From positions 3,987-67,986 of the forward strand of contig JBLIOI010000007.1 of the NCBI GenBank assembly GCA_047639675.1: DNA of 64,000 bases, written 5' to 3'. The notes under the pieces were generated by a model. It was not told the DNA's origin. It saw nothing but the letters and a program-made list of their open reading frames with translations, and made no database searches. Position 1 is the first letter of the stretch. Each line of letters begins with the position of its first letter. Both the position numbers and the translations under genes were made by a program. This document shows positions 2,261 to 34,708 of the stretch, one piece after another. The DNA comes from Planctomycetota bacterium. GTDB lineage: Bacteria > Planctomycetota > UBA1135 > GCA-002686595.

Positions 2261-2456
2261 GAGTCAGCGACCTTCAATCCTCACCCAGAATGTCCGCATG
2301 TTCGATTTCCAATGTAGAAGAGAATAGGAAAGGCCCGGCCCAGCCATCTTGATCAAGACTTGCGGTAAGGCCGCACATGGAACACGTCGCTGCTCTTATT
2401 GGCAGTCACGACAGCTATGAATAGGCGCTTCGAGGGCAAACTGACCACGTCACGGC

Positions 2457-5400
2457 CTAGTGGCTATCTACTTGAAAGTCCCGGTCCGAGATCCCACCCG
2501 ATTGCAAGCGGACCTCAACCGACTTGGTCTCACTTCCTTCGTAGATAGCACGGACGAGCACACGCCCATCAGCGAGCCCGGTGAATTCGTACTTGCCGCC
2601 AGCGTCCGTAGTGAAAGCACGATTTCGATAAATCCGGTGGCCCGAAAGTGTGGTGACTTCGACATGTGCCCTCTGTAGGGGCATACCATCCGAACCTGTC
2701 ACTTGGCCTTTGAGGACAGCCTCTTCTTCGAGAGTGAAATCCATTCCATCCAGTTGGGACCCTTTATCAATCTTGATTCCGTCACGAATGATCACCGCAT
2801 CCGAATTCTTTGAGCGTCGCCCCCATGAGCGGCCATGATCATTGACGCGGATGAAAAAGGTCCCAGCCGGAACGTGGGTGAATTCGTAACGACCTTCACC
2901 ATTTGTGGAGATCGTCATTGTCCCAAAGTCTGAAGTGTCGCCCTGCGCGGCTTCCAACCGTTCCAGGTGCATCGAACAACTAGCCTTGGGTTCGCCATCG
3001 CTCCCCATCACACGGCCAGCAATCCGCCCCACGGGAAGCTCAAAGTCAACGCCCGGGTTGTCACCACTAGTCAATTCTCGGGTTGTCTGCGTCACGCCTG
3101 TTTGACGGTTGCCGACATGGAACCAGAAGAGTCCCGAGCCACTCACGTTCATCGCGTAGACGCCGTCGCCGTCCGTTTGTGTCGCATCATTATTGAACTG
3201 CTCTCCCTCAGCCTTTCCGCAACTGATGCGCACGTTAGCTAGTGGCACGCCTCCAGCGAGCACACGTCCCGTCACTCGGGTTGGATTGGCCGGCGGCGCC
3301 CCCAGAACTACAGACTCCTTCTGGCCGGCTTTCACGTCCACGTCAAGCCCTATGGATCGCCCTGGGCTTGCAATCGAGAGTGCACCGTTACCCGAAGAGG
3401 AACTCACGTTCTGGAGAGTGAGCCGATAGCTTCCTGGATCGAGCCCGTCCAATTCCGCTTCACCTCGGCTGTCCGTCTCAATTCTGTTCCAGTAGTTACC
3501 AGAGCTCGTACCCTGGATGTTGATCTGACGGCCTTCGACCTCTCCAACCGAAGCGTGCAGTTGAACATTCAAGCTTCCACCTGGGCGCAACTGGAGGCTA
3601 ATCCCTTTTACGGTCTCCCCTGCGAGAGCCTCGATCAGCTCGTTGTTACTGGTTCCAAAACCGTCTGCCCGGGCGCGCACCACGGATCGACCGCTGCGCG
3701 CATCCTTGACGGTGAACTCACCATCCTCATTTGTAGTAGCGTCCTCTCCCCAGCGGGATGCCAGCGCATTGGGGTCGAACTTCTCGCCCTCTTCGAGGCG
3801 CTCCACCCAGACATCGGCGCCGGAAATAGGATCACCGCCAGGCCCGCGTACCACACCTTTGACCTCTGCCCAACGCGAGACGGTCAAATCGACCTTGCCA
3901 GCACCGGGCAGATTGACCGTCATCTCCTGTGAAGTGCTGTGTTTGGAAGCACTGGCTTCGATTTGCCATGTGCCTTCACTCAGCCCGTCGATGGTAAAGG
4001 CTCCATCCATACTGACGACCAAGCGTTCGACGCTATCCGAGCGTCCAAAATCATCTCCGGATCCTTCTACGGGTTCTGCACTGATCTTGAAGCGTTTGAC
4101 CCCTTCGCCGAGGTCATCGAGCACGCGACCGCTCAAGCTGTCTCCTTGTTCAAGTACGAGCACCAAACCGCGAGTTCCCGGTGAAACGTCATCCTCACGA
4201 GTTTTATAAATCGGTCCTCGCGCCCTTAGCTTGTAGCTGCGGCCTTCCTTTTCGCGCTCCTTAGCTTTATCGAGTTCTTGCTTTCGGAAGGACTTGGCAG
4301 AAGCACGCACGACACACTTAGAGCTTTCAAGTCCCGTAATTCTAAAGGTGCCGTCTGCGCCGGACTTATCGCTAACCCCGTCCCGAAAATCAAACATGGG
4401 ACTATCCTTCTCGCGCTCTTGCATCGCACTGACCACAGCCCCAGCAGCTGCGGAACCATCCGGCCATTGCACGATTCCTTCGATGAAGTTGCCTTCGCCA
4501 ATGGTCAACAGCACGCCTCGACGCTCGCTGCCATCTGCGAGCCTTCCCAGTTCCTCTTCTGTGGACAAGTGATCGGCGAGCCCAGCCTTCAATACGACAT
4601 CTTCTTCACCGACCCCCTTGAACTCGAAACTACCGTCGTCCTTTGTTTGAGTCGATTCCTGAGACCAGGACCCCATGCCACTCACTCTGACTTCGACAAT
4701 CACTCCCGCTCGCCCGACGTTGTCAGAGTTCACGACGCGTCCGGATACGATCGCTCCAAGCTTAAGCTGCAAGTCGAGTCGCTCGGCCTCACCGGAACGA
4801 ACCTTGATGTCACCCCTTCGTTGATCGCACCACTCCGGCATTGCCGCATGGAAATTGAAGTTGCTCCCGGGGGGAATCGCCGTGAGCACATAGTGACCCT
4901 TGGAATCCACATCGGCCCCACGCTGAATCATGCCGGAGCCGTCCCAACGAGAGAGTGAAACGCGAGCGTCATCGGCCAGCGCTGCGGTCCAACTTCTGCC
5001 GACAGGAGCCAAGAGATGCCCCTCAAGAACTCCACCCATTTCGGGCTCGACCAAAACCTCGCCCTCAACGTCATCCAGCTCAAGACTTAGCTTCTCAGGC
5101 ATATAGAGGTAACGCCCTCGCACATCAAGCCAACCCCTCTCCGTTGACTCGGAGAAGGCCACTCTAAATTTTCCGTCCCGATCAATGGAGACCGTGTGCT
5201 CCCGGCGACCGTCAGTCTTGTCACCGAATCGCCGACCACGTGCCGTGACTTTGATCTCGCCCATATCGGTCGGCATGCGCTCTGGAAACACTACGCGACC
5301 GTTGATCCAGCGAGCATTCGACGCAGGTGCGGCACTCGATGAAGTGACTACGCGGCTGGGCTCCTTTACGGGCGCAACTTCCGCCCTCTCGGTTTGGGTC

Positions 5401-5579
5401 TCAATCTTCTGCGCGAGTTCTGGAAGGATCGTTCCGGTCGCGGCCTCGATTGAGGATTGCCGAACGAGCTCAACGCCATCTTCCTCAGTAGGAAGTTCAT
5501 CCACCATGGCGAACTGCCAAAGCACGAACAAACCAATCCCTACGAGAGCTAGAATTGGCAAGAGCAGTTGGTTCTTCAT
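2457..5579 (-). CDS. Membrane-anchored CarboxypepD_reg-repeat protein (larger tandem paralog)
   Basis: ORF 2457..5594; likely start is the ATG at 5579 (MKNQLLLPILALVGIGLFVLW). Same N-terminal architecture as 26..2260 (WINGRVVFPERMP vs WIEGRVVFPEGMP). Many GRV(L/V/M)-x-x-x-G-x-P modules (TGRVLAGGVPLANVRI, AGRVMGSDGEPKASC, KGQVTGSDGMPLQRAHV). Confidence 0.6.
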   Translation of the reverse strand: MKNQLLLPILALVGIGLFVLWQFAMVDELPTEEDGVELVRQSSIEAATGTILPELAQKIETQTERAEVAPVKEPSRVVTSSSAAPASNARWINGRVVFPERMPTDMGEIKVTARGRRFGDKTDGRREHTVSIDRDGKFRVAFSESTERGWLDVRGRYLYMPEKLSLELDDVEGEVLVEPEMGGVLEGHLLAPVGRSWTAALADDARVSLSRWDGSGMIQRGADVDSKGHYVLTAIPPGSNFNFHAAMPEWCDQRRGDIKVRSGEAERLDLQLKLGAIVSGRVVNSDNVGRAGVIVEVRVSGMGSWSQESTQTKDDGSFEFKGVGEEDVVLKAGLADHLSTEEELGRLADGSERRGVLLTIGEGNFIEGIVQWPDGSAAAGAVVSAMQEREKDSPMFDFRDGVSDKSGADGTFRITGLESSKCVVRASAKSFRKQELDKAKEREKEGRSYKLRARGPIYKTREDDVSPGTRGLVLVLEQGDSLSGRVLDDLGEGVKRFKISAEPVEGSGDDFGRSDSVERLVVSMDGAFTIDGLSEGTWQIEASASKHSTSQEMTVNLPGAGKVDLTVSRWAEVKGVVRGPGGDPISGADVWVERLEEGEKFDPNALASRWGEDATTNEDGEFTVKDARSGRSVVRARADGFGTSNNELIEALAGETVKGISLQLRPGGSLNVQLHASVGEVEGRQINIQGTSSGNYWNRIETDSRGEAELDGLDPGSYRLTLQNVSSSSGNGALSIASPGRSIGLDVDVKAGQKESVVLGAPPANPTRVTGRVLAGGVPLANVRISCGKAEGEQFNNDATQTDGDGVYAMNVSGSGLFWFHVGNRQTGVTQTTRELTSGDNPGVDFELPVGRIAGRVMGSDGEPKASCSMHLERLEAAQGDTSDFGTMTISTNGEGRYEFTHVPAGTFFIRVNDHGRSWGRRSKNSDAVIIRDGIKIDKGSQLDGMDFTLEEEAVLKGQVTGSDGMPLQRAHVEVTTLSGHRIYRNRAFTTDAGGKYEFTGLADGRVLVRAIYEGSETKSVEVRLQSGGISDRDFQVDSH

Positions 5580-5747
5580 GTCACCGATTGTCACCCTGGA
5601 GTCCCTATTGGGGAAGGCTCCTGCAGGAGGAATGATCGCTTTGGTACCTCAGCCCAGTTGATGTGCGTAAGATGCGTGTTGCCTGGGCCCTCCAGTACAA
5701 GTCTCCCCGGCTAACCCATCCCAGCACAACCCAGCGCGAATTCGATC

Positions 5748-17078: not shown

Positions 17079-19316
17079 ATGAAGATCGAGACCCAGGCGA
17101 CGAAAGCCGCCAGCTCTAGTGAGAGCCCCCTGACAAACGCCGTGAGCAGCACCCCCCAGCCAGAATCGCCTGCATTCGAGCTCATCTCGAAAAAGCCCAC
17201 CCGCGTCGCCCTCGTGGGCGCCGGCTTCATCGCAGACTTTCACCTGGAGATCCTGACCAAGATGCAGGAGGTCGAAGTCGTCGCGGTTTGTGACCCTGTC
17301 TTGGGAAGGGCGCGCAGCCTGGCGGACAAATGGTCGGTGCCAGTGGCTGTCGCCAGCATTGCTGAGCTCGCGGAACATGGCATTCAAATTGCACATCTCC
17401 TAACTCCGCCGGACCTGCACATGCGTTTGGCCAAGGAGGTCTTGGAGTTAGGTATTGGGCTTTACGTGGAGAAGCCCCTGGTACTTTCAGCAAGCGATGC
17501 ACGTGAGTTGGTGGAGCTAGCCGCGAAACGCAAGCTACCGCTCGGTGTGAACCACAACCATGTCTTTCAACCGGCCTTCGTACGTTTGATGGAGAAGGTC
17601 AATGCGGGCGAGATCGGTGCGGTGGAACACGTGCAAGTCACTTGGAGTGTTCCGCTCATGCAACTCGACGCGGAACAGTACTCACACTGGATGTTCCGCT
17701 CGCCGCGCAACATCATGTTTGAACAAGGCCCCCACCCGCTTAGCCAAGTTCATCGTTTGGTCGGTGCCGTGCAGGATTGTCACACAGAGATATTGAGCTC
17801 GCGGGAATTGCTCCCCGGTCAAACATTCGTCGACAGGTGGCTCGTTTCTGCTCGCGGGGAACGCGCTACCGCAGAAATCTACTTGGCCTTTGGTCAAGGA
17901 TTCACGCGCAACACAATACAGGTAATCGGCAGCGATGGAACGCTGGAAGCCGACTTCACTCACGACACACTCGCCGGCGAACGCAAGACGCTTTGGCTTG
18001 AGTTTTGGAACTCGTTCCTGGCGGCCTGGCGCCGCGGAAAGATGTACAAGAAGGACGCACGCCGTGTGCTCAAGAACTATCTCTCAGCGACATTAGGATT
18101 AGCAGAACGCAAGGATGCTTTCTTTGCTGGCATGCGCTCCTCGATAGGGTCCTTTCATCAGAGCCTGCGGGCCGGGACTGCCTTACCCGTAGACGGCGCG
18201 CAAGCGGCTGAAGTCCTGGATTGGTGCGATGCCGTAGCCAAGGAAGTCAAAGATGTGGAAGCGCCGAATTCGGAGCTCTCGGCGGAAAGTGCGCGCCCTG
18301 GCGAAGTCGTAGTCCTCGGCGGGACGGGATTCATAGGCAAGCGCGTCGTTCGTGGCTTGCTCGATGCGGGCGTGCCGGTCACATGCGTTGTGCGCCGTAC
18401 GCATTCTTTGCCCGAAATAGTCGAGGAGGGCGCACGCGATGGTCGCATTCGCTTGTTACGCGGCAGCCTCGAAAAAGCCGAAGACCTCGAAGCCCTATTT
18501 GATGGCGCCCACGCCGTTGTGCACCTGGCCACGGGTAGCGGCGACACCTGGGATGACGTCGAGAGAGTCATGGTCCAAGGCTCAGTAAAAGTTGCCGAAG
18601 CCTGCTTGCGCAAGGACATCAAACGCTTCGTCTACATCTCCTCGGTTGCCTCACTCTACACCGGCGACGAAGGCGCTTCGCCCCTGGCGGATGCGCCCAG
18701 CACGGATCCTGAAGCCGCAACGCGTTCAGTTTACTCACGCGGCAAGGCGGCGACGGAAGACGCGCTCTTCGAACTCGCCAAGGAACATCAGTTGCCCTTG
18801 ATCGTGTTACGACCCGGCATAGTCGTTGGGGACGGAACTCCAATGCAACACTCGGGCTATGGACTTTGGGCCCGCGACAACCACTGCGTGGGTTGGGGAC
18901 TCGGCGAACATCCCTTACCGCTAGTTTGGGTTCAAGATGTGGCCGACGCGATCGTCTCTGCAACACTGCACAAGGAAAACAATTTGCACGGCAAGGCCTT
19001 AAACCTGTGCTCCAAGGTTCAGCTCAACGCACGCGAGGTTGTTGAAGAACTGCGCCATGTCACGGGCCGCGACTTGCACTTCCATGCGCGCGCACTGCCC
19101 CGCAGTCAGGCGATGGAAATCGGTAAGTACTTCGTCAAGCTGGCCGGAGGCCGCGCTGGACTGGAGTGGCCGGACTACCGCGACTTGCGTGCACGAGGTC
19201 TTTTCACGGTCTTCGAGAGCAACCTCGCTCGCGAAGTGCTCGGCTGGACCCCCGTCGAAGATCGTGAAGAGTTCCTCGACAAGACGGTTCGCATCTACGG
19301 CAAGAAAGCTCAGTGA
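17079..19316 (+). CDS. Fusion protein: Gfo/Idh/MocA-type oxidoreductase + NAD-dependent epimerase/dehydratase (extended SDR)
   Basis: 745 aa. First Rossmann motif VALVGAGFIADFHLE with a Gfo/Idh/MocA-like layout. Second Rossmann motif VVVLGGTGFIGKRVVRGLLDAG at about residue 410, followed by an SDR-type YSRGK segment. Confidence 0.75.
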   Translation: MKIETQATKAASSSESPLTNAVSSTPQPESPAFELISKKPTRVALVGAGFIADFHLEILTKMQEVEVVAVCDPVLGRARSLADKWSVPVAVASIAELAEHGIQIAHLLTPPDLHMRLAKEVLELGIGLYVEKPLVLSASDARELVELAAKRKLPLGVNHNHVFQPAFVRLMEKVNAGEIGAVEHVQVTWSVPLMQLDAEQYSHWMFRSPRNIMFEQGPHPLSQVHRLVGAVQDCHTEILSSRELLPGQTFVDRWLVSARGERATAEIYLAFGQGFTRNTIQVIGSDGTLEADFTHDTLAGERKTLWLEFWNSFLAAWRRGKMYKKDARRVLKNYLSATLGLAERKDAFFAGMRSSIGSFHQSLRAGTALPVDGAQAAEVLDWCDAVAKEVKDVEAPNSELSAESARPGEVVVLGGTGFIGKRVVRGLLDAGVPVTCVVRRTHSLPEIVEEGARDGRIRLLRGSLEKAEDLEALFDGAHAVVHLATGSGDTWDDVERVMVQGSVKVAEACLRKDIKRFVYISSVASLYTGDEGASPLADAPSTDPEAATRSVYSRGKAATEDALFELAKEHQLPLIVLRPGIVVGDGTPMQHSGYGLWARDNHCVGWGLGEHPLPLVWVQDVADAIVSATLHKENNLHGKALNLCSKVQLNAREVVEELRHVTGRDLHFHARALPRSQAMEIGKYFVKLAGGRAGLEWPDYRDLRARGLFTVFESNLAREVLGWTPVEDREEFLDKTVRIYGKKAQ

Positions 19317-20452
19317 AGAAGGCGGCGGGCACCCCCCACCTGCTGCACGTTTTTTCAACCTTCGTGCCCGCCGGTCCGGAGATGCGTACAGTGCGCATGA
19401 TCAATGCCCTTGGCGAGAGCTATCGGCACTCCATCTTGGCGATCGATGACCGTACGGATGCGCAAACAGAATTTGATGCGACTGCCCCCGTACGAATCCT
19501 GCCGGGTCTGCCGCGTGCGGGCACGGCGAGCACGGTTAGCGCCCTGCGCAGATTGATTCGAAGGGAGCAGCCCGACCTGCTGCTTTCCTACAACTGGGGC
19601 GCCTTTGACAGCGTATTCGCTTCGCGCAGTTTGTACCGGGGGAATCGTCACTTGCATCATGAGGACGGTTTCAACGCGGACGAAGCGGACAGCTTCAAGT
19701 CTCGCCGAGTTTGGACAAGGCGGCTTTTGCTGCCAGGCGTCGCGCGCACCGTCGTCCCCTCAGAAGTGCTGATGGGCGTCGCAACCAAGACTTGGAAACT
19801 GAAGCCCAAACACATTCAGCTCATTCCAAACGGTATCGACCTCGACAGCTTCACTGAACGCGATGGAAACCCAGCCTTGCGCGCTGAACTAGGCATCTCA
19901 CCGGAAACGCCAGTGATCGGTTTCGTCGGACACTTACGACCGGTCAAGAATACGCAGAGATTGCTGCGCGCTTTCGCAGCGGTTCGCTGCGATCCTATGC
20001 CAGAGCTCGTCATGCTAGGCGAAGGTGAGGAGCGCGAGGCAATAGCGAAGGCCGCGATCGCTCTGAACATCCAAGATCGTCTACACCTCGTCGGTCACAA
20101 GTCCGACACCGCCCCTTGGTATCGTTTGATGGATCTATTCGCGATCAGTTCGGACAGCGAGCAGATGCCCGTCGCGCTCCTGGAGGCGATGGCGACTTCC
20201 TTGCCGGTCGTATCCACGGGAGTCGGTGACGTGGCTCATATGCTCTGCGCAGACCAAGCTCCATTCGTCAGCGCCGGAGCACCTTCCTCTTGGGAGTCTC
20301 AACTCACCAGTGGCTTCGAGAAAATGATCGCTTCGGTAGCCCAGCGGCAGACTCTTGGAAAAGCCAATCGCGAGCGAGTCGAAGAGCACTACTCCTTCGA
20401 TAGCATGCTGGAAAGCTACCGCACGCTCTACGATTCGATTCTCGGTAACTAA
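19313..20452 (+). CDS. Glycosyltransferase family 4 (GT-B, RfaG-like)
   Basis: 379 aa. C-terminal E-x7-E region SDSEQMPVALLEAMATSLPVVSTGVGDV. GTGA overlap with the upstream fusion gene. Confidence 0.8.
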   Translation: MKKAAGTPHLLHVFSTFVPAGPEMRTVRMINALGESYRHSILAIDDRTDAQTEFDATAPVRILPGLPRAGTASTVSALRRLIRREQPDLLLSYNWGAFDSVFASRSLYRGNRHLHHEDGFNADEADSFKSRRVWTRRLLLPGVARTVVPSEVLMGVATKTWKLKPKHIQLIPNGIDLDSFTERDGNPALRAELGISPETPVIGFVGHLRPVKNTQRLLRAFAAVRCDPMPELVMLGEGEEREAIAKAAIALNIQDRLHLVGHKSDTAPWYRLMDLFAISSDSEQMPVALLEAMATSLPVVSTGVGDVAHMLCADQAPFVSAGAPSSWESQLTSGFEKMIASVAQRQTLGKANRERVEEHYSFDSMLESYRTLYDSILGN

Positions 20453-20460
20453 TCTCCCCC

Positions 20461-21039
20461 ATGGCCGACATCCCCGCTAACCCGCCCCCCTTTCCGCCCT
20501 TCGAGGTAGCCGAATCCAAGCGGGTGTACGACTCACACTGGTGCGCTTTACGCCGCGACCAAGTCGTCTTGCCCAACGGCAAGCTCCAGGAGTACCACGT
20601 CTTCGAAGTTCCGAACGCGGTAGTCGTCGTACCTGTGCGCAAGGACGGTTCGATCATCATGCTCGGCCAATACCGCTATCCTCACGGTAATACACACTGG
20701 GAGATTCCCGCTGGCCGCATCGATGCAGGGGAAGAGCCCATCGCCGCCGCTGAGCGTGAATTGCGCGAAGAGACCGGGCATCGCGCCGGCCGCCTATTGC
20801 CCTTGCCCGGCTTCTACCCGACGAATGGTATCAGTGCGCATTACGCCCATGCTTACGTCGCACTCGACTGCGAAGCAGTAGGCGAACTGGAACTCGATGA
20901 GTCCGAACAGATCTTCGTCAAGATTTTCGAGCGCACCGAAGTCGAAGCTCTACTCGACGCGGGCCGCCTGGCGGACGCCTTCACTGCGCTTCCGTTGATG
21001 TACTACTTGCGCGGCGTGCACGAAGGCCCGCTGCGTTAG
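20461..21039 (+). CDS. NUDIX hydrolase (ADP-ribose/nucleotide-sugar pyrophosphatase-like)
   Basis: NUDIX box GRIDAGEEPIAAAERELREETG. 192 aa. Confidence 0.85.
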   Translation: MADIPANPPPFPPFEVAESKRVYDSHWCALRRDQVVLPNGKLQEYHVFEVPNAVVVVPVRKDGSIIMLGQYRYPHGNTHWEIPAGRIDAGEEPIAAAERELREETGHRAGRLLPLPGFYPTNGISAHYAHAYVALDCEAVGELELDESEQIFVKIFERTEVEALLDAGRLADAFTALPLMYYLRGVHEGPLR

Positions 21040-21058: not shown

Positions 21059-22063
21059 TTAGCGCGACAGGGCCCGTAAGAAACTGACTAGATTCGCAGC
21101 ATCTGCTTCCGACAGCGTGAAGGGCTTCAGCTTGTCCGACAACTGCGCATTTGCCACCCCGCCCGTACGATAGTACTCGACGACCTCTTCCAAAGTCGCT
21201 TGACTGCCATCGTGCATGTACGGCGCCGTCTTCGTCAACATTCGCAGTCCTGGCGTGCGGAACTTTCCGTGATCGCCTGCTTCGCCGGTGATCGCGCCAC
21301 GACCTTCTTCAGCGACTTCATCAAGGACACCGATACCCGTATTGTGGAAGTCCTCATCACTGAAGTTCGGGCCCTTGTGACAACGCCAGCATCCTCCGCG
21401 TCCTTGGAACAACCAAAGTCCCGAACGCTCTTGCGCTGTCAGGGCCTTGAACTCCCCCGCCTCAAAGCGGTCGACCGGAGAATTCCCCACGGACAGGGCG
21501 CGCACGAAAGCCGCTAATGCGCTCGCCAAGTTCTCTGCGGTCGGCGCGCTGCCGAAGGCGCCCTCGAATTCGTTCGTGTAGACCTCGTCTGCAGCAAGTT
21601 GCTCGATCGCGGGCTCCACACCGAGTCCCATTTCGCTCGGGTTCTCGATCGGCATGAGCACCTGATCCTCGAGTCTCGCCGCACGCCCATCCCAAAGCAC
21701 ATGGGTACTGAGGCTCTTGTTGAGCAAGCTGGGTGAATTGCGCAACGTGGGCTGGCCATTGATTCCGAGGGAATAGCGGCGGTTGTCGGCAAAAGCGAAC
21801 TCAGGTCGGTGGCAGCTTGCGCAGGCAACAGTTCCACCCTTCGATAATTTTGGATCGAAGAATAAGCGTCGCCCAAGGGCAACTTGCTTATCCGTTGCCG
21901 TCCAACCAGCGGCCAGCCCCTCAACACCGAGCAACTCCACACGTTCAAGTGGACGCGGCAGTCCGTCCACGGGAACACCCAAACCTGAGGCGCCATCATC
22001 CCTCGCCACAGCAAGTGCGGCGAGGGTGAATAGCGCACCCAAGGCGGCCCCGAAAGGAGTCAA
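21059..22063 (-). CDS. Di-haem cytochrome c peroxidase (CCP/MauG family)
   Basis: Two CxxCH haem sites (ACASCH and CWRCH). Conserved ...APYMHDGS... near the C-terminus. The ORF extends to 22168, but the signal peptide (TPFGAALGALFTLAALAVA) follows a TTG at 22063, which has GGAG 7 nt upstream and avoids overlap with the upstream gene. Confidence 0.85.
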   Translation of the reverse strand: MTPFGAALGALFTLAALAVARDDGASGLGVPVDGLPRPLERVELLGVEGLAAGWTATDKQVALGRRLFFDPKLSKGGTVACASCHRPEFAFADNRRYSLGINGQPTLRNSPSLLNKSLSTHVLWDGRAARLEDQVLMPIENPSEMGLGVEPAIEQLAADEVYTNEFEGAFGSAPTAENLASALAAFVRALSVGNSPVDRFEAGEFKALTAQERSGLWLFQGRGGCWRCHKGPNFSDEDFHNTGIGVLDEVAEEGRGAITGEAGDHGKFRTPGLRMLTKTAPYMHDGSQATLEEVVEYYRTGGVANAQLSDKLKPFTLSEADAANLVSFLRALSR

Positions 22064-22079: not shown

Positions 22080-23132
22080 TTACTGTTTGGCCTCAGCCAA
22101 AAGCTCGGCGATGGTCTCATCCATCGCTTCACCATTGTGACCACGTGCACGGATCTTGCCATTGGCATCGATCAGGACGTAGGTCGGGTAGCCGGTCACT
22201 TGATACATCTTGGCGATGGCGCTCTCCGCGCCCTGGTAAGCACTCAGCCAAGTCACACCATAAGTCTCAAGCCCAGCGCTGTAGGCCTCGGGCGAATCGC
22301 CCGTGTTGACACCGATCAATTCAAAAGCATCGTCTTGATGACGCTCAACGAGCGTCTGCAGGTGGGGCATTCCCTTCCTGCACGGGCCTCACCAAAAGCC
22401 GTAGAAGTCGAGCAGCACAACTTTGCCGCGATAGTCGGACAAGTTGAAATCGAAGTCATCGTGGGTACTGCCCTCGAAGTCGGGAGCCATATCTCCGACG
22501 AAGACGTGAGATGCGGCTAATTTTTTGCCCCAGGTTGTCGATGCGAATTCCGCTTCGACTCGGGCCAGGAAGGTGATGCCGCGCGCCTTGGACTTCTCAT
22601 CCTCGGACTTCTTCAGCATGGTTCCCGCGAAATAAAGCGCGCCAGCACGATTCTCGGCTGTCTTACTTGTCTCTACGGTGGCCGCGAAGAGTGCCAAAGC
22701 TGACTCATCGCCGATCGATCGGTGATTCTTGCTGATCGATTCCAGCGCTGTGCCAAACCACTCGGCATCCTTGTGCTCTGCGACGAGCTTGTTGTAGTGC
22801 GTTCGAAGTACATCGCCGCGCTCACCCATCTTGACGCCGGTTTCGCGAACGTGCATAGCCATCCACAAGAGTGCGCGGCCATTGCCCGCATCGCTCAGCG
22901 CCTTAAACCTTGGCAAGAACGCGATGGCCGGATTCGCCTTCCGTAATTCCTTGCGCTCATCTTTTGTGGCAGCCTCCATGGCTTTGGACCACTTCGCCAC
23001 TGCGGCATTGCATTCGGCAGTAAGAGCCACAGCATCGTCGTCAACGACGACAAGACTGAGCGGTTCCGCGACTGGAACGGTTCCGGCTCCTCCGAAAAGG
23101 AAGAGCGCGGGGAACAACAGAGATTTCATCAT
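22080..23132 (-). CDS. Candidate selenoprotein: periplasmic TlpA/ResA-like thiol:disulfide oxidoreductase with Sec (UGA) in the W-U-G-P-C active site
   Basis: ORFs 22389..23132 and 22080..22370 share one frame, separated by TGA plus 18 nt. Read-through gives ...GKVVLLDFYGFW-U-GPCRKGMPHLQTLVERH...IGVN...VTGYPTYVLID..., i.e. a complete thioredoxin fold with CxxC and a cis-Pro region. N-terminal signal peptide MMKSLLFPALFLFGGAG. selB lies in the same window. Confidence 0.7.
22357..22382 (-). promoter_or_regulatory. Candidate bacterial SECIS hairpin
   Basis: 5'-UGCAGG AA GGG AAUG CCC CA CCUGCA-3' begins 6 nt after the UGA. 6-bp lower stem, 2x2 internal loop, 3-bp upper stem. The apical loop starts 17 nt after UGA and contains G/U. 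Folded by eye only. Confidence 0.45.
22389..22391 (-). other. In-frame UGA, proposed selenocysteine codon
   Basis: Minus-strand reading GGC TTT TGG TGA GGC CCG TGC = G F W * G P C. The stop occupies the position of the first Cys of WCGPC. Confidence 0.65.
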
Positions 23133-23290: not shown

Positions 23291-25087
23291 CTACTCCTTC
23301 AGCTCGAACAGTCCCATCCAGGGTCCAGGCCGTTCCATGGCCCAGATCGATGTTGCGGGAGAATCCAACTCCATCGGTAGGCGAGCCTCGCCACCCTCGG
23401 AGCCCACTGCGTAGGGACCGATCGTGATTAGCGCCTGACGCTGCTTCCCAAAGCCCTCGAATAGGCTGCCCTCGATTCCCGTTTGCAAGCGGTTGACGAG
23501 CAGGAAGTGAGTGACTCCAAGCCGCTTGAAGGCTTCAGCGGTTCCCTCTCCCAAGCGCTCGCCCAATCCCTTCCTGATAGTCACGCTGGCCCCCTGCTCA
23601 TCGATTTCGAATAGGTCGGAGACGTAGACACCGTGGACCCCACCCTCGATCACTCCCGCACGCAAAGCTTCCAAGCGTCGGGCTTCCCTTTGATAGAGGG
23701 ACGATCCGGAGGCTGTACGCAATTCGTTCAAGAGCTCCAAACTGCTCTGATCCAAGTCGACGATCGGCCCGTAGCGATCAATCGCCACGAAGGAATCAGA
23801 GGGCAAGTCGAGCAGGGCCAATTCGCCCTCGACGCGTGTGTCGTCTCGCTCTAGTAGCGAGCCCAAGCGGAGAGCTTGAATCATCGGCAGCAGAGACAGA
23901 GCAACGATTGCAACTCGCACGGCAGTCCCTCGTTGCCACACGCTTTCCACGAAGCTGCCGGCAGCGAAGGCCAAGAAGGCTCCAAGCGGCAATAAGTAGC
24001 GCACGTGTTCATTGGAGTGCGTCATGAAGAACGCGGCCCAAGCCAGAGCAAAGAGGCCCGCGGGAAGCGCTGCACGCCGCTTGAGTAAAGAGACGATTCC
24101 GAACAGCCCGAACAACGTCAAGACCGGATCGTAGAGGAAGAACGCTCGCGCCAAGTGCGGGAAAGTTTCCCAGCGCCTTGCGAAGTTTATCGACTGCCCA
24201 CCGAGGGAAAGGTCCGCTTGATCGCCCCCAATGGTTTGTGCCGCGCTCGGCACACCGTGGAGCAAGTATGCAGGATAACCGACCAGGAGTACCAACAAGC
24301 CAAAGGCCGCGACGCACAGTGTCCCCTGCTTCAAGCGCTTGACCAGGTCATCGCCAACGAAGCCCAAGGGCGACACTAGCCAAGCCAGCCCTGGAATTCC
24401 CAAGGCGAATAAACCCGATTGATGACAGGCCCCTGCAAGTGCCGCCAGCAAACCCGAAAGAAGCAATTGGCGCCCTTCTGGCTTCCTTACGTAGTTCGCT
24501 GCGGGCCACGCAGCGAGCACCATGAAAAACACAACAGCCACCCAGGGCCGTTCTTGCACGGAGAAGTGCAAGTGCATCATGCCCGTAGCAACGAACCATG
24601 CCGCCGCCCATGCGCCTTCGCGCAATCCTGCCGCGCGCGCCGCTTTGAAAGCAGCGAGTGCTGAGAGTGCACCGATGAAAACCATCAGCCAACGGGCCAG
24701 TAGATGCACCTCGCCCGGCTTTTCGAGCACGAAGTTCTTGTAGCCATCGGTACTGTCCCAGCGCCCGCTGATCCGTCCCGACATGAATTGCGTCGCGTAG
24801 ATAGGTAACAAGGCGTAGGGCAACAGATTCGGATAGCTCGAATACTGTCCCACCGGCGGCGCCAAGCTCTTTTCTTTGGCCATGCCGAGCGCCGAGCGCA
24901 CGACATGCGTGTCCGGCACGTAGTTGCGTGGAAGTCCGTGCTCCACCGCTCGCCCCCGCAAACCTAGTGCGAGCACGAAGAGTAGCAGACCAAAAAAGAG
25001 TTGTCTGCCGCCCGTCACTCCGGTCGCCTTGCGCGAGGCGCCGGTCTCTCCTTTGCCAAGCGTGTCAGGCTTCCGGGTCGACATCAA
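23291..25087 (-). CDS. Polytopic membrane protein, ArnT/PMT-like (GT39/GT83-type) glycosyltransferase candidate
   Basis: 598 aa. About 10 or more hydrophobic helices in the N-terminal two thirds, then a soluble C-terminal domain. Family-like early loop (RNYVPDTHVVRSALGM). Assignment by architecture only. Confidence 0.5.
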   Translation of the reverse strand: MMSTRKPDTLGKGETGASRKATGVTGGRQLFFGLLLFVLALGLRGRAVEHGLPRNYVPDTHVVRSALGMAKEKSLAPPVGQYSSYPNLLPYALLPIYATQFMSGRISGRWDSTDGYKNFVLEKPGEVHLLARWLMVFIGALSALAAFKAARAAGLREGAWAAAWFVATGMMHLHFSVQERPWVAVVFFMVLAAWPAANYVRKPEGRQLLLSGLLAALAGACHQSGLFALGIPGLAWLVSPLGFVGDDLVKRLKQGTLCVAAFGLLVLLVGYPAYLLHGVPSAAQTIGGDQADLSLGGQSINFARRWETFPHLARAFFLYDPVLTLFGLFGIVSLLKRRAALPAGLFALAWAAFFMTHSNEHVRYLLPLGAFLAFAAGSFVESVWQRGTAVRVAIVALSLLPMIQALRLGSLLERDDTRVEGELALLDLPSDSFVAIDRYGPIVDLDQSSLELLNELRTASGSSLYQREARRLEALRAGVIEGGVHGVYVSDLFEIDEQGASVTIRKGLGERLGEGTAEAFKRLGVTHFLLVNRLQTGIEGSLFEGFGKQRQALITIGPYAVGSEGGEARLPMELDSPATSIWAMERPGPWMGLFELKE

Positions 25088-30051: not shown

Positions 30052-31590
30052 CTAGTTGGCGCTAGGGTCCATTATGGCCCCTGAAGCGTCAATCAGGTGC
30101 GTTGCGGTCCTGCCCGCGATGTCTACCTTCGCGCCCTTCAGACTGATGCGCGCACCCGCTTCGGTCACGATTGTCACCTCGTCGGCGACTTGGGATAGAA
30201 GCTTGCCGTAGAAAACGCCTCCAACTGTGGTCACGCGCACGCTCTTGAGGCCGGCAAGGTCTTGAGACCCGTTTTCGCCAAGAACTGCGGAGCCTTCCGA
30301 AGTGAGAATGTGCTCCACTCGATCGATCTGCCAATCCATCAAGGCCATTTTGCCCAGATTGGTCTCGATCCAAACGCGCTTCTTGCCAACGGCGTAAAGC
30401 TCGCCTTCAAAGATCTCACCATCGGCAAGGACGACTCGCACTCGGCCTACGTTGGGCGTTAGGACACGATCAGTTTTGGAGATCGCCTCGACAGGAATTC
30501 CGGCGTCAAGCCAGAGTGCCGCCAACTCTACTTCCGATGCCTCACGCAACTCCCCGCCCAAGTCTTCGGGGGTCAAGTTCAGAGCCTCATCACCGTTCGC
30601 CTGTGTGGCCGTATCGAGACTCCAGTCCTGGATTGGGCTCGTCGCATTCCAATCGATTTGAATCGGTGAAGAGTCAGGTTCGGAAACCACTTCGATCGGA
30701 GTCGTGCCCGCGACAAAGACCTCGGTCATTTCTGGCTCAGCGCTAATTCCCGGGGCAATGAGTTCGAGGGCCGGCGCCTGCGAATCGTCCGTAGCTATGG
30801 ATTCAAAGGGACTGACCAGTCCTCCGCCAACTTGTTCCGCTGGCTTCGACGCCACCAGGGCTTCGTCCGTATTGGGAGACTCCTGCGGTTTGTTCTGTTG
30901 ATTGGGCTTGTTCTGGGCTACTCGCGGCCTGATCTCCGGAGTGGCGTCCTTGCCCACGGGCACAAACTTCGCACCGACAACGCCAATAAAGACGGAGACG
31001 GCAGCGATAAGCGTTCGAGCTAACCAAGGCGAAGCTGCAGCAACAGGCTCGTCATCCTCATACTCGTTTTCGTACTCGACATCCAGATCGAGTTCTTCTG
31101 AACCCAGCTCTGCTTCCAAACCCTCTAAGGGTTCTTCGTCGACGTATTCCGTGTCCTCCCCATCATCGGAGAGCTCGAACTCCATCAGCCAGCCGTCATC
31201 CTGGTCAGCTGGTTGGTACTCGCCCTCGCTTTCGAACTCCGCTACGTGCGCACTGAGCTCGTTGTCTTCGAGGGGATTTTCTTCAATGGATTGCAGCGAT
31301 TGAAGCGAATCCAAGACTTCAGCTGCCCCCGGATAGTTCTCGTTGGATCCAAACTCGGCGAATTCTGTTTCGCCATCCTCGAAAACTTCGTCTTCGAGTT
31401 CGAGCTGACCCAGTTCCTCATCCGTGGGCGAATTTAGGATTGGCGCATCCGGGAGTTCACCCGTTAGCGCACTTTGCAATTCCGAGTCGTCTTCGTCATC
31501 ACCAACTCGTAAGTACTCTTCGTTAGAGAACTCTTGGTTCGAGGATTCGTCTCCCTCGGGAGAATCGGGGCTGGTGGGGTCTATGGACAT
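30052..31590 (-). CDS. Hypothetical single-pass membrane protein with a highly acidic N-terminal region
   Basis: 512-aa ORF. About 180 aa of D/E-rich low complexity, a TM segment (WLARTLIAAVSVFIGVVGAKFV), then a Pro/Ser-rich linker and a C-terminal globular part. No family recognised. Confidence 0.55.
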   Translation of the reverse strand: MSIDPTSPDSPEGDESSNQEFSNEEYLRVGDDEDDSELQSALTGELPDAPILNSPTDEELGQLELEDEVFEDGETEFAEFGSNENYPGAAEVLDSLQSLQSIEENPLEDNELSAHVAEFESEGEYQPADQDDGWLMEFELSDDGEDTEYVDEEPLEGLEAELGSEELDLDVEYENEYEDDEPVAAASPWLARTLIAAVSVFIGVVGAKFVPVGKDATPEIRPRVAQNKPNQQNKPQESPNTDEALVASKPAEQVGGGLVSPFESIATDDSQAPALELIAPGISAEPEMTEVFVAGTTPIEVVSEPDSSPIQIDWNATSPIQDWSLDTATQANGDEALNLTPEDLGGELREASEVELAALWLDAGIPVEAISKTDRVLTPNVGRVRVVLADGEIFEGELYAVGKKRVWIETNLGKMALMDWQIDRVEHILTSEGSAVLGENGSQDLAGLKSVRVTTVGGVFYGKLLSQVADEVTIVTEAGARISLKGAKVDIAGRTATHLIDASGAIMDPSAN

Positions 31591-31776: not shown

Positions 31777-33693
31777 CTAGCGCTTCTTCAGGACGCGATT
31801 TCCGCCTTGGCGCAGGGTCACGCCTTCCAAGTCCATGCGTTCCAAAATCGGGATAAGAAACTTGCGACTCGTGCTCAAAACATCCCGCAGCTCGGGGATT
31901 ACGAGCTGCCCGTTCTTCTCGCAGTTCGAAACGACAGCTGTTCGGGCCTGCTCAGCCGTGGCGGCGGTCAAGAACAAGCCGTTCTTGAGCGGCACCAAGC
32001 GCCCCGCATCCACCAGCATCTCGAGCACCGAATTCAGCTCCTTCTCTGCGGTACCGAGAGTCGTCGCCAACTCCGCTTCTGCCGGGGGCTGGAAGGCTGC
32101 CTCCTCCAAGTGCGCCTCGATCTTCTGTATCAGCTCGCGCTTCGATTCATCGAGGGCTACCTTGCGCCCCGCCAAGCGAACCTTGCCACCCGCTTCCAAT
32201 TCGATCCCGCCACGCGTGCGCTCTTCCTCCAAGAGGAAGTTCAGGAAGCTCGGCTCGTAACCCAAGTCTTTGCGCAACTCGCCTACGGGAACCACCTCGC
32301 GCAGAGCATTTTTGTCGAACCAGGCTGCGATCGTGTCGCGCAACTTTTCTAGCGACGACTCCAGCGTCTCAATGTGAAGCCATTTTTGGCCCTTCGGCTC
32401 TTCGACAACCGCACCGCGCCCGGCTAGGTCGCCCAAGATCGCGCGGGTTTCCGCGAGGGAACGCTTGATCGCAACGGACAAGTCTTGAGCACTCTGTAGG
32501 GTTTCGCCACGTCGTGCCAAAATCACTTCCAAGAGATCCGTCGGCGACTCCAAGCTGCTCTCTTGTCGTCCGAGTTCTTCGAGCACGAAGCCCTTGAAGC
32601 GTTTGAGGCGGTGACGGCTTTCCTCGAGAATTTTGCCTCCGCCCAAGGTAATCAGCGGTGAAGCCAATCGCAGAATAAAGGGATCCCCGGGCGCACAAAC
32701 CACAGGTTTCTCCAATCGCAGTTGTATCAAACCGGTCTCCCCCGGCTTCAATTCCGTTGAGTCCAATAGCACTGCTTGCCCCACGACTTCTACAGTTCCC
32801 GTGTGCAAACGCACCTGCGCACGATCCTTCAAACTGCACTCCACCTTAGCAAGCATCGTCATGCGCGCGCCCACCATGCGCATCGCACGAAAGTAACCGG
32901 GCACGGCCGCGACGCTTCCGCGATCAGCATCCTTGCGCGACACATCCGAGATGTTTATGGCCGTCGAATGTCCGGCTCGAGCCGTTTCCGTCGCCTGCCG
33001 GTAGGCTTGCAATCCACGCACCTTGCCCTTGTGGCCGCCCGGCAAGATTTCAAGTGTGTCACCAATGGAGAGGGTCCCGGAAACGGGTATCCCTGTGATC
33101 ACAGTGCCAAAGCCCTTCGAACTAAAGATCCGTTGCACCGGCATGCGAAAGACCCCGTCTGTCGCCCGCGGCTCGACTTCCATCGCCGCTTTGAACAGAG
33201 CCTCTTTGAAAGCATCCATACCGATGCCTTTCAAAGCCGAGATGCGAAAGATGGGCGCATCGTCCAAAAAGGTGCCGGCGATCGACTCACGCACATCCTC
33301 TTCCGCGAGTTCGATGAGCTCCTCCTCCACCATGTCCACCTTGGTCAGGCAGATCATCCCGCGGGAAACTCCCATTAATTCCATGATCGAAAGGTGCTCG
33401 CGAGTCTGCGGCATGACCCCGTCATCCGCTGCGACCACCAAGACCACCAGATCGATTCCTGAAGCCCCCGCCACCATATTCTTGATGAAGCGCTCGTGCC
33501 CCGGCACGTCCACAATGCCCACTAGGCGCCCGTCCGGCAGTTCTAGGGGCGCAAAACCCAAATCGATGGTCACGCCGCGCTCCTTCTCCTCTTTCAGGCG
33601 ATCGGGGTCGATCCCGGTCAGGGCGCGCACCAAAGTAGATTTGCCGTGGTCGATGTGCCCGGCGGTTCCGATGACAATAGGCTGGATCTCCAT
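31777..33693 (-). CDS. selB: Selenocysteine-specific translation elongation factor SelB
   Basis: GTPase motifs GTAGHIDHGKSTL, DVPGHERF, LTKVD. About 638 aa, with the long C-terminal winged-helix extension typical of bacterial SelB rather than EF-Tu. Probable start is the ATG at 33693 (MEIQPIVIG...). Confidence 0.9.
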   Translation of the reverse strand: MEIQPIVIGTAGHIDHGKSTLVRALTGIDPDRLKEEKERGVTIDLGFAPLELPDGRLVGIVDVPGHERFIKNMVAGASGIDLVVLVVAADDGVMPQTREHLSIMELMGVSRGMICLTKVDMVEEELIELAEEDVRESIAGTFLDDAPIFRISALKGIGMDAFKEALFKAAMEVEPRATDGVFRMPVQRIFSSKGFGTVITGIPVSGTLSIGDTLEILPGGHKGKVRGLQAYRQATETARAGHSTAINISDVSRKDADRGSVAAVPGYFRAMRMVGARMTMLAKVECSLKDRAQVRLHTGTVEVVGQAVLLDSTELKPGETGLIQLRLEKPVVCAPGDPFILRLASPLITLGGGKILEESRHRLKRFKGFVLEELGRQESSLESPTDLLEVILARRGETLQSAQDLSVAIKRSLAETRAILGDLAGRGAVVEEPKGQKWLHIETLESSLEKLRDTIAAWFDKNALREVVPVGELRKDLGYEPSFLNFLLEEERTRGGIELEAGGKVRLAGRKVALDESKRELIQKIEAHLEEAAFQPPAEAELATTLGTAEKELNSVLEMLVDAGRLVPLKNGLFLTAATAEQARTAVVSNCEKNGQLVIPELRDVLSTSRKFLIPILERMDLEGVTLRQGGNRVLKKR

Positions 33694-33736
33694 GTCGCGC
33701 ACCTTACCAGGATCCGAATCGGATATCGTTTGCGGC

Positions 33737-34708
33737 GTGACCTCTCTACCTTTCAATCCGCTCCGTCCGCATTTGCGCGAACTCTACGGACGCAATGTTT
33801 ACCGCGTGGCCCTCGACGCCGGCTCCACCTGTCCCAATCGCGATGGCGCGAAAGGCTTTGGTGGCTGCGTTTATTGTGACGTGGAAGGCTCGGGGACCGG
33901 CGAGCTCAAAAGCGGCACGCAGTTGGCTGTGCAACTCGAGGAAGGCATCGAGCGCATCCGGCGGCGCGAGCCCGATCCTGGAATCATCGCCTACTTCCAG
34001 TCCTACTCGAATACCTACGTGGCGCCCAAGCGCCTGCGCGAGGTCCTCGCTGTCTTGGATAAGCACCTGGGCGACCCAATCGTTGCCGTCAGCATTGCGA
34101 CTCGCCCGGATACGATTTCGCCGGAAGCCCTCGACATTTTAGCCGAGCTCAATGAGCGCGTTCCGGTTTGGCTGGAGCTCGGTCTAGAGGTTGCGGATGA
34201 TGCCTTGCTCGACAAGATTCAGCGCTATCACACGGTGGATGACTTCCTTGTGGCGGTTGAGCGCGTGCACCGTGTGGGCTTGCAAGTTGTAGGGCATGCA
34301 ATCCTCGGCATCCCAGGCGACGGTCGCGAGGGCGCGCGGCGCACGGCGGACTGTTTAGCGCAGAGTGGAATCGCTGGCATCAAGGTCCACAACTTGATGA
34401 TCCTGCGCCGCACGATACTCGAAAAGTGGTGGCGCGCCGGGGAAGTGCCGGTGCTTGAGCCGGCCGCTTATGTTTCGTGGTTAGCGGACTTCATCGAGCG
34501 CTTACACCCGGATCAAATTGTGCACCGCATGACCGGTGACGCGGCGCCCGAAGAGTTACTCGCGCCCCTTTGGGATGTGCGCATGAATGGCATTAGGCAC
34601 AGGCTAATCCAGGAGCTGGAAGCGCGTGGGACACGCCAGGGGTCACTTTTCGCTGGGGCAGGAGTATCGAATCCTGCGAGTTTCTCGGAGAAGCAGCGAA
34701 CAGACTGA
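33737..34708 (+). CDS. Radical SAM protein, TIGR01212 (YhcC-like) family
   Basis: LYGRNVYRVALDAGSTCPNRDGAKGFGGCVYCDVEGSG matches the N-terminal signature of this family. Start is uncertain: GTG at 33737 or ATG at 33692. The ORF track extends it to 33023, but that part is antisense to selB. Confidence 0.8.
   Translation: MTSLPFNPLRPHLRELYGRNVYRVALDAGSTCPNRDGAKGFGGCVYCDVEGSGTGELKSGTQLAVQLEEGIERIRRREPDPGIIAYFQSYSNTYVAPKRLREVLAVLDKHLGDPIVAVSIATRPDTISPEALDILAELNERVPVWLELGLEVADDALLDKIQRYHTVDDFLVAVERVHRVGLQVVGHAILGIPGDGREGARRTADCLAQSGIAGIKVHNLMILRRTILEKWWRAGEVPVLEPAAYVSWLADFIERLHPDQIVHRMTGDAAPEELLAPLWDVRMNGIRHRLIQELEARGTRQGSLFAGAGVSNPASFSEKQRTD

Follow-up and report, generated by a model that had tools for sequence, protein, structure and literature searches.

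Background

A selenocysteine (Sec)-containing "thiol-disulfide isomerase-like protein", TlpA-like (cd02966) and carrying a UxxC motif, was first reported in 2005 from the Sargasso Sea by Zhang, Fomenko and Gladyshev, whose description covers the thioredoxin (Trx) domain only, in four sequences (PMC1088965), and the family also appears in the table of a 2026 review (PMC13188914). The same sources hold a second family with Sec in a related setting, listed as "Prx-like thiol:disulfide oxidoreductase" (PF00578, UxxC/UxxU; PMC13188914 Table 1) and as "Prx-like protein" (PMC1088965). Among the Planctomycetes, Sec machinery and selenoproteins were noted in 2016 (PMC4807772). Here we analyze a stretch of 64,000 nucleotides (the window) from a metagenome-assembled Planctomycetota genome (contig JBLIOI010000007.1), in which positions 22080..23132 of the minus strand appear to hold one exported thioredoxin-fold selenoprotein gene that gene callers have split into two fragments, a reading to which we give a probability of about 93%.

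ResA of Bacillus subtilis, CcmG/DsbE and TlpA of Bradyrhizobium are extracytoplasmic thiol:disulfide reductases that hold cysteines in the reduced state, be it in CxxCH motifs or at the copper sites of respiratory proteins, and they serve in the maturation of cytochrome c and of cytochrome oxidase. The product of the window's gene resembles them in its Trx fold, in the position of its redox centre (W-C-x-x-C in the known proteins), in its cis-Pro loop and in its probable export, and its gene adjoins that of a c-type haem protein; unlike it, these proteins use Cys, have a single transmembrane anchor and are without a helical-repeat domain. With the "thiol-disulfide isomerase-like" selenoproteins the protein has in common a TlpA-like Trx fold, a UxxC motif with Sec first, the existence of Cys homologues and an origin in environmental bacteria, whereas it adds a helical domain of ~180 residues behind a probable signal peptide and belongs to a group in which Sec forms appear to make up ~90%. 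The relation to that family (exemplar MGB1650493.1) is drawn by motif and description, that is, UxxC in a TlpA-like domain, rather than from the exemplar sequence. The Prx-like selenoproteins are likewise similar in their best Pfam match (PF00578, AhpC-TSA) and in having UxxC, not the TxxU of peroxiredoxins; compared by description (exemplar WP_010940744.1), no N-terminal helical domain is described there. Another candidate, the ResA-like WAxxUGC selenoprotein (NF041054), is TlpA/ResA-like and of comparable length (a 354-position model), and it was set aside because its model scores 31.9 bits, where 300 would be needed, and because the motif here is W-U-G-P-C in place of W-A-x-x-U-G-C.

The initial annotation of this locus had allowed that its family class is not new, and this is so: TlpA-like selenoproteins with UxxC have been known since 2005 (PMC1088965, PMC13188914), which makes the conceptual gain modest. 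What may be new is the helical-domain fusion, the dominance of Sec and the pairing with a peroxidase, features that would set the group apart from catalogued families, as judged by published descriptions rather than by the sequences of BSepDB (PMC13326102). In the literature on Planctomycetota we found none of the three described, only general Sec use (PMC4807772). The outcome is a solid annotation correction across a subfamily together with a testable functional pairing, not a new principle.

The gene and its product

The gene (22080..23132; this and the other features of the gene lie on the minus strand) consists of 350 codons, from an ATG at 23130-23132 to a TAA at 22080-22082. Its open reading frame (ORF) listing and translation show a single interruption, the TGA at 22389-22391, which is codon 248. 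As the initial annotation had it, two ORFs, 22389..23132 (247 residues) and 22080..22370 (96 residues), share one frame and are parted by nothing more than this TGA and 18 nucleotides (nt). The TGA stands in the context ...DFYGFW-[UGA]-GPC..., and reading through it gives ...RGKVVLLDFYGFW-[UGA]-GPCRKGMPHLQTLVERHQDDAFELIGVN...VTGYPTYVLIDANGKI... or, with longer flanks, ...LSDYRGKVVLLDFYGFW-[UGA]-GPCRKGMPHLQTLVERH...VTGYPTYVLIDANGKI... On codon conservation and the Cys of homologues, we take the UGA (22389..22391) to be the Sec codon at the first position of a U-G-P-C redox motif. The expectation that standard gene callers would break such a gene has been borne out: an identical 247-residue fragment is present in NCBI, JGI and Logan and is annotated at NCBI as a "hypothetical protein" of a Planctomycetota metagenome-assembled genome, the 96-residue remainder is uncalled, and orthologues are called as pieces of ~250 and ~100 residues. 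In place of these the correction puts a 350-residue selenoprotein, predicted to be functional. The window scan returned 131 other in-frame TGA candidates, which were rejected as spurious long frames of the kind that a GC-rich genome commonly produces; a redox-motif context was found at the target alone.

When the stop is replaced by C, Pfam recognizes a TlpA/ResA-like Trx-fold domain over residues 212-335 (22128..22499), matching AhpC-TSA (E=1.8e-22, 80 bits), Redoxin (70.5 bits), Thioredoxin_8 (54.5 bits) and Thioredoxin, where the cut-offs of the first three are 26, 26.6 and 27 bits. Since this domain extends across the TGA at residue 248, each of the two fragments is an incomplete fold. The active site reads W247-U248-G-P-C251, and it is the piece after the UGA that supplies both the resolving Cys of UxxC (residue 251; UGC, 22380..22382) and the cis-Pro loop GYPT (G314-Y-P-T, 22182-22193), just as had been proposed. 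The closest solved structures of the Trx domain are 2ls5, ResA 1st9 (2e-15), DsbE-like 3gl3 and TlpA 1jfu (3e-11). The protein is an orthologue of neither ResA nor TlpA, since both NCBIfam models score below their cut-offs (ResA NF002854, 86.5 against 170; TlpA NF047696, 65.4 against 230). PrxU (NF040737) scores 20.1 against a cut-off of 270, and a peroxiredoxin of the Prx or PrxU kind was rejected as a candidate: PxxxTxxC/U is absent, and Y-G-F-W precedes U248 with no Thr at -3. The gene is one that no curated model would flag.

The N-terminus is hydrophobic and begins with a probable signal peptide, MMKSLLFPALFLFGGAGTVPVA (residues 1-22, 23067..23132), from which the protein is probably exported. 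An AlphaFold2 model was made of the 247-residue fragment from an alignment of 81 sequences. Residues 1-26 are unstructured in it, with a low predicted local distance difference test score (pLDDT), and residues 27-208 (22509..23054) are modelled as an all-alpha helical-repeat domain of 12 helices with a mean pLDDT of 89, ten-residue blocks reaching 94-99 over residues 31-200. The initial annotation had called the roughly 200-residue helical N-terminal domain unrecognisable, and it remains without a family: Pfam has no match in the ~200 N-terminal residues, and a Foldseek search of the domain against the PDB gave no specific structural match, only generic helical repeats (14-3-3, TPR and designed repeats; best E=0.07).

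Conservation of the UGA among relatives

The joined sequence was searched against 5.8 billion proteins, and its 444 matches fall into two length classes. The homologues of ~250 residues that were fetched all end at ...F[YF]GFW (26 of 26; 35-53% identity), and those of 341-374 residues (P0004, P0007, P0008, P0013, P0016-23, P0030 and P0040) run on as GFW-C-x-x-C. Full-length Cys forms thus place their first Cys opposite the UGA, which the initial annotation had named as support for a Sec codon on the first Cys of W-C-G-P-C; the 341-residue P0007, for example, is collinear with the joined protein over residues 32-347, with a gapless C/U column and Cys opposite residue 248 (BLASTP, X248).

At the DNA level, 80 loci of species-representative genomes and an equal number of metagenomic loci were scanned for the motif and gave 178 homologous sites; the named genome records are mostly of Planctomycetota, with a few labelled Verrucomicrobiota, Fimbriimonadales or Brocadiaceae. 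The codon at the Sec position is TGA at 163 of the 178 sites, TGC at 10, TGT at one and some other sense codon at four, and neither TAA nor TAG occurs (0 of 178). Within the window's own subfamily it is TGA at 21 sites of 21, and an exact-protein look-up added nine further close orthologues, all with TGA, the 18-nt gap and a separately called "Redoxin" fragment of ~100 residues. The frame stays open past the Sec position at every site, continuing as [G/P]PC... (GGC... in L071), and the paralogues all end 102-118 codons past their UGA. Identity to orthologues is 46-75% over the 102 residues after the UGA, against 32-55% over the 200 before it; the resolving Cys is present without exception when 160 distinct Sec-type sites are compared, and ~146 sites are distinct in sequence within the larger sister subfamily alone. 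These comparisons indicate that the reading frame downstream of the UGA is under purifying selection. A truncation in close relatives would have counted against the initial annotation, and none was found at the 178 sites. The conservation of the TGA, the open frame and the collinear Cys homologues together form a pattern that could arise neither from a true stop nor from a pseudogene or a mistake of assembly.

With a profile of essentially the N-terminal domain alone, a search of 1.84 billion representatives yields 805 clusters (50% identity) with E<=1e-30. Among the best 150 representatives, the Trp that precedes the UGA is the last residue of 135, and some dozen are full-length Cys forms, so that ~90% of this helical-domain/TlpA-like subfamily appears to be of the Sec type. 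The same misannotation is to be met in hundreds of database clusters, most members of the subfamily recovered in these searches being stored as stubs of ~250 residues that end at Trp, and since this is so, the selenoproteome sizes of Planctomycetota and their neighbours are probably undercounted wherever the subfamily lacks a model.

Several loci carry more than one copy. Two or three Sec-type paralogues stand in tandem in L114 (329, 1448, 2802) and L042 (5581, 6712, 7886) and also in L151, L153, L082, L029, L044 and L055, most units being separate genes. Consecutive units follow one another without an intervening stop in L114 (329 to 1448) and in L126 (TGC at 3121 to TGA at 4117), and one database protein (P0062) begins at the Met that follows one UGA and ends at the UGA after it. 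These cases point to an occasional fusion protein with two Sec units or with a Cys and a Sec unit. Other copies lack the redox residue: L007:5589 and L104:373 have Asn codons and P0070 has Ser at the Sec/Cys position, and L097:2598 and L101:143 have GTG there, with the resolving Cys also lost. These paralogues with Asn, Val or Ser, which adjoin a Sec copy on its upstream side, seem to be redox-dead or altered proteins of the same architecture.

RNA structure downstream of the UGA

The SelB-bound Sec insertion sequence (SECIS) of Escherichia coli fdhF is a stem-loop within the coding sequence directly 3' of its UGA, the spacing of its G23/U24 serves below for comparison, and the loop range used by bSECISearch is 16-37 nt from the UGA. 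For the present gene the initial annotation had proposed a single hairpin whose sequence, offset and loop distance have all proved to be as it gave them, and which is part of the minimum-free-energy fold. This hairpin 1 (UGCAGG-AA-GGG-AAUG-CCC-CA-CCUGCA, 22357..22382) begins 6 nt past the UGA, its loop lies 17 nt downstream and 20-23 nt from the U of the UGA, and all 9 of its pairs form in the window's own sequence. The same fold contains a second element that abuts it, hairpin 2 (GACGCUC-GUU-GAGCGUC, 22340..22356), whose apical loop stands 42-44 nt away from that U. The 65-nt stretch has a z of -2.25, with 4 of 200 shuffles folding equally well.

Pairs were counted in an ungapped alignment of the 21 orthologous sites of the window's own subfamily, and the shuffles used for comparison take no account of the phylogeny of these sites. 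Over both hairpins 83.6% of the cells are paired, compared with 78.5 +/- 1.0% in shuffles and no more than 50% when the register is slid, and the covariation score is 0.215 compared with 0.129; none of 500 shuffles reaches either value. Hairpin 1 is paired in 77.2% of cells, with two compensatory pairs and with shifts of register in its inner stem among orthologues, and hairpin 2 in 91.8%, with three: pair 44-56 (AU 9, CG 9), pair 43-57 (GC 15, AU 5, GU 1) and pair 42-58 (GC 16, AU 2, GU 2). The covariation in hairpin 2 couples codon 12 (Thr/Ala/Glu) with codon 16 (Arg/Leu), a third-position site included, and this coupling of nucleotides argues for selection on the RNA rather than on the protein. 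Across all sites the 60 nt that follow TGA are more stable than those that follow TGC or TGT (-21.2 against -16.7 kcal/mol, p=0.02), and in two Cys-type members of the subfamily hairpin 1 keeps 5-6 of its 9 pairs and hairpin 2 keeps 4-5 of 7. Both being degraded in the Cys forms, computation cannot tell which of the two SelB would bind.

The proposal that hairpin 1 is the SECIS stands in part: the hairpin is real and 77% paired across 21 orthologues, but its conservation is moderate, and it is hairpin 2 that covaries more strongly. For this last reason the candidate SECIS is better described as a region of two abutting hairpins, 22340-22382, within the coding sequence, to which SelB is predicted to bind. 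Like that of fdhF, the element lies inside the ORF and 6 nt past the UGA, and the loop spacing of hairpin 1 is equal; unlike it, there are two abutting conserved hairpins, the loop of the stronger being ~42 nt out, and there is no sequence similarity. A variant that would leave the selenoprotein reading intact, and whose likelihood is not to be added to those of the rival readings below, is that hairpin 1 alone is the SECIS and that hairpin 2 is kept for mRNA stability or ribosome pausing. The fdhF-like spacing of its loop and its complete pairing in the window's own fold speak for this variant, and we regard it as possible and somewhat doubtful, given the shifting inner stem and the lower pairing of hairpin 1, the 92% pairing and three covarying pairs of its neighbour, and the decay of both in Cys forms.

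The sister subfamily (...W-U-[G/P]PCRAM[I/Y/F]PHERSLV; sites among L004-L161, e.g., L011:6667, L017:6667 and L105:3445) has a different element, CACGAGC-GGUC-GCUCGUG, which occupies the stretch 27-44 nt past the UGA, its loop being 34-37 nt away; in the SECIS of E. coli fdhF the loop likewise reads GGUC. This subfamily was assessed by helix-by-helix pair counts and by synonymous-site entropy, RNAalifold having found no consensus structure in its 146 sequences. From codon +9 to codon +13 the synonymous entropy collapses (Ser as UCG in 123 of 123 cases, Arg as CGG in 131 of 134, Leu as CUC in 151 of 156), whereas elsewhere in the same genes three or four codons are in use for these amino acids; the frozen synonymous sites indicate selection at the RNA level right after the UGA in this subfamily.

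Probable Sec decoding and alternative readings of the UGA

The window encodes selB, the Sec-specific elongation factor, at 31777..33756 on the minus strand, 9.4 kb from the selenoprotein gene and thus at about the 9 kb that had been claimed; it matches TIGR00475 at 346.4 bits (cut-off 242.25) over model positions 1-580 of 581. We know of no role for SelB beyond Sec insertion, and from its presence we infer a complete Sec pathway in this bacterium. Taken with the codon and homologue evidence, SelB supports the view of the initial annotation that the locus encodes a Sec-containing TlpA/ResA-like oxidoreductase. The surroundings of selB itself (31777-34708) show it alone, with no adjacent selA, selD or tRNA-Sec; it is divergent to a radical-SAM tRNA-modification gene (MnmL/YtqA, TIGR01212, 256 bits), and downstream of it lies an ORF of 512 residues (30052-31590) with no family match.

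A number of points count against this reading, or against parts of it. Selenium incorporation at residue 248 is a prediction from sequence. The 64-kb window contains no tRNA-Sec detectable by ARAGORN, its sole tRNA being a tRNA-Pro, and neither selA nor selD was found among its large ORFs. The statistics of the hairpins come from shuffles that ignore phylogeny, and their Sec-versus-Cys control consists of two Cys sequences; the pairing of hairpin 1, the one with canonical spacing, reaches only 77%, and the better-supported hairpin 2 has its loop 42 nt out, past the bSECISearch range. Rfam gives no match on 22250-22450 at E<=10 bar a chance CRISPR-DR match, and at the gathering threshold it finds only the tRNA-Pro in the whole window. 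The initial annotation had named the failure of any SECIS model to score as grounds for rejection, and in Rfam none did score; the null is uninformative, and carries little weight, because to our knowledge Rfam has no general bacterial SECIS model. As to function, the peroxidase pairing described below is absent in the more distant members L003, L082-L085 and L168, and the link between selenoprotein and peroxidase is a best guess from gene order alone.

Among other readings of the codon, the one that survives best supposes that the UGA is read through without Sec, either by genome-wide reassignment to Trp or Gly or by near-cognate suppression with Trp or Cys. Some bacterial lineages do decode UGA in alternative ways, and such a reading would sit easily with a window in which tRNA-Sec, selA and selD are not seen. 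We consider it very unlikely nonetheless: TGA ends 7 of the 15 confidently identified genes of the window, rho, gatA, guaB and ksgA included, at their expected ends, so that UGA is not reassigned genome-wide; an intact SelB is present; a UGA on the nucleophilic Cys of a CxxC centre, alternating with Cys codons among relatives, is a signature of Sec; and the conserved structure after the UGA decays in Cys forms. Less likely still is a true stop, the locus then being a pseudogene or two genes, one for a helical protein of 247 residues and one for a fragment of 96 residues that would start at an ATG (22370) 18 nt past the TGA. Gene callers and public annotation do treat the locus in this way, but neither piece is a complete fold and the Pfam domain crosses the TGA, 163 diverged sites always have TGA and never TAA or TAG, the downstream piece is in frame and more conserved than the upstream one, the Cys homologues are single collinear proteins, and the intact frame of a pseudogene would not last through divergence at the level of a phylum. 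The least likely of all is a sequencing or assembly error for TGC or TGT, which a single base in a metagenome-assembled genome could produce, and which we dismiss because a separate Logan assembly has the same TGA (its contig reads TGG TGA GGC), the fragment is in three sources, and the feature recurs at 163 sites in independent loci, ~146 of them distinct in the larger subfamily.

Proposed function and the partner peroxidase

The gene immediately downstream of the selenoprotein gene (21059..22063, minus strand) encodes a di-haem cytochrome c peroxidase with two CxxCH motifs; its start is uncertain, the candidate TTG at 22063 being 17 nt past the selenoprotein stop. Of the 9 closest orthologues looked up, 8 have the peroxidase gene as their direct downstream neighbour, as have L002 and L102 (53-68% identity), and the outer flanks of this two-gene cassette vary among loci (Rho, pyruvate:ferredoxin oxidoreductase, HMA-ATPase and others). 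Nothing consistent was found as another conserved downstream partner in subfamily members without the peroxidase gene. A maturation pairing of the MauG/MauD type, raised by MauG/MbnH-like NCBIfam matches, was rejected, the partner protein being far nearer to true bacterial cytochrome c peroxidases (3o5c/1iqc at E~1e-44) than to MauG (1e-21).

According to the selenoprotein reading, the UGA at 22389-22391 would be decoded as Sec by SelB and Sec-tRNA(Sec), insertion being directed by the structured mRNA of hairpins 22340-22382, and the product would be an exported protein of 350 residues with a signal peptide, a helical-repeat domain of ~180 residues and a Trx-fold domain containing W-U-G-P-C. 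The selenolate of U248 would attack a substrate disulfide and C251 would resolve the mixed selenenylsulfide. By analogy with ResA, CcmG and TlpA the protein is most likely a periplasmic thiol:disulfide reductase. The data show a recoded gene, its domain architecture, a conserved RNA structure, SelB in the window and a conserved linkage to the peroxidase gene; that the protein is periplasmic and acts in the direction of reduction, and what it does there, are our best guess. It may keep the CxxCH haem-attachment cysteines of the neighbouring peroxidase reduced during maturation, as ResA and CcmG would, or it may act with the peroxidase in one periplasmic pathway of peroxide defence, and in either case the helical domain could serve as a docking module.

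We put forward only tentatively, as a proposal somewhat against the odds, that the helical-repeat and UxxC proteins form a large, Planctomycetota-centred subfamily (at least 805 clusters, ~90% Sec, no curated model), and that their fixed cassette with the peroxidase in the window's orthologue group might be an undescribed selenium-dependent periplasmic module for peroxidase maturation or peroxide defence, its UGA being decoded through an unusual two-hairpin SECIS. The near-exclusive use of Sec in a presumably exported reductase, and its pairing with a haem peroxidase, would offer a system in which to study the benefit of Sec over Cys in an oxidising periplasm.

Other features of the window

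Between rho and the selenoprotein gene lies an ORF of 598 residues (23291-25087, minus strand) with no NCBIfam match, a homologue of which, 68% identical, occupies the same position in L162. Beyond the peroxidase gene, positions 19313-21039 of the plus strand hold a GT4 glycosyltransferase gene and an ORF of 192 residues (20461-21039), the latter matched to the NUDIX gene of other loci by position only. The order is the same in L162 and L164, and synteny in the closest relatives thus reaches past the two-gene cassette. At the start of the window, positions 26-5594 of the minus strand contain two very large ORFs of 744 and 1045 residues that consist largely of CarboxypepD_reg/prealbumin-like repeats.

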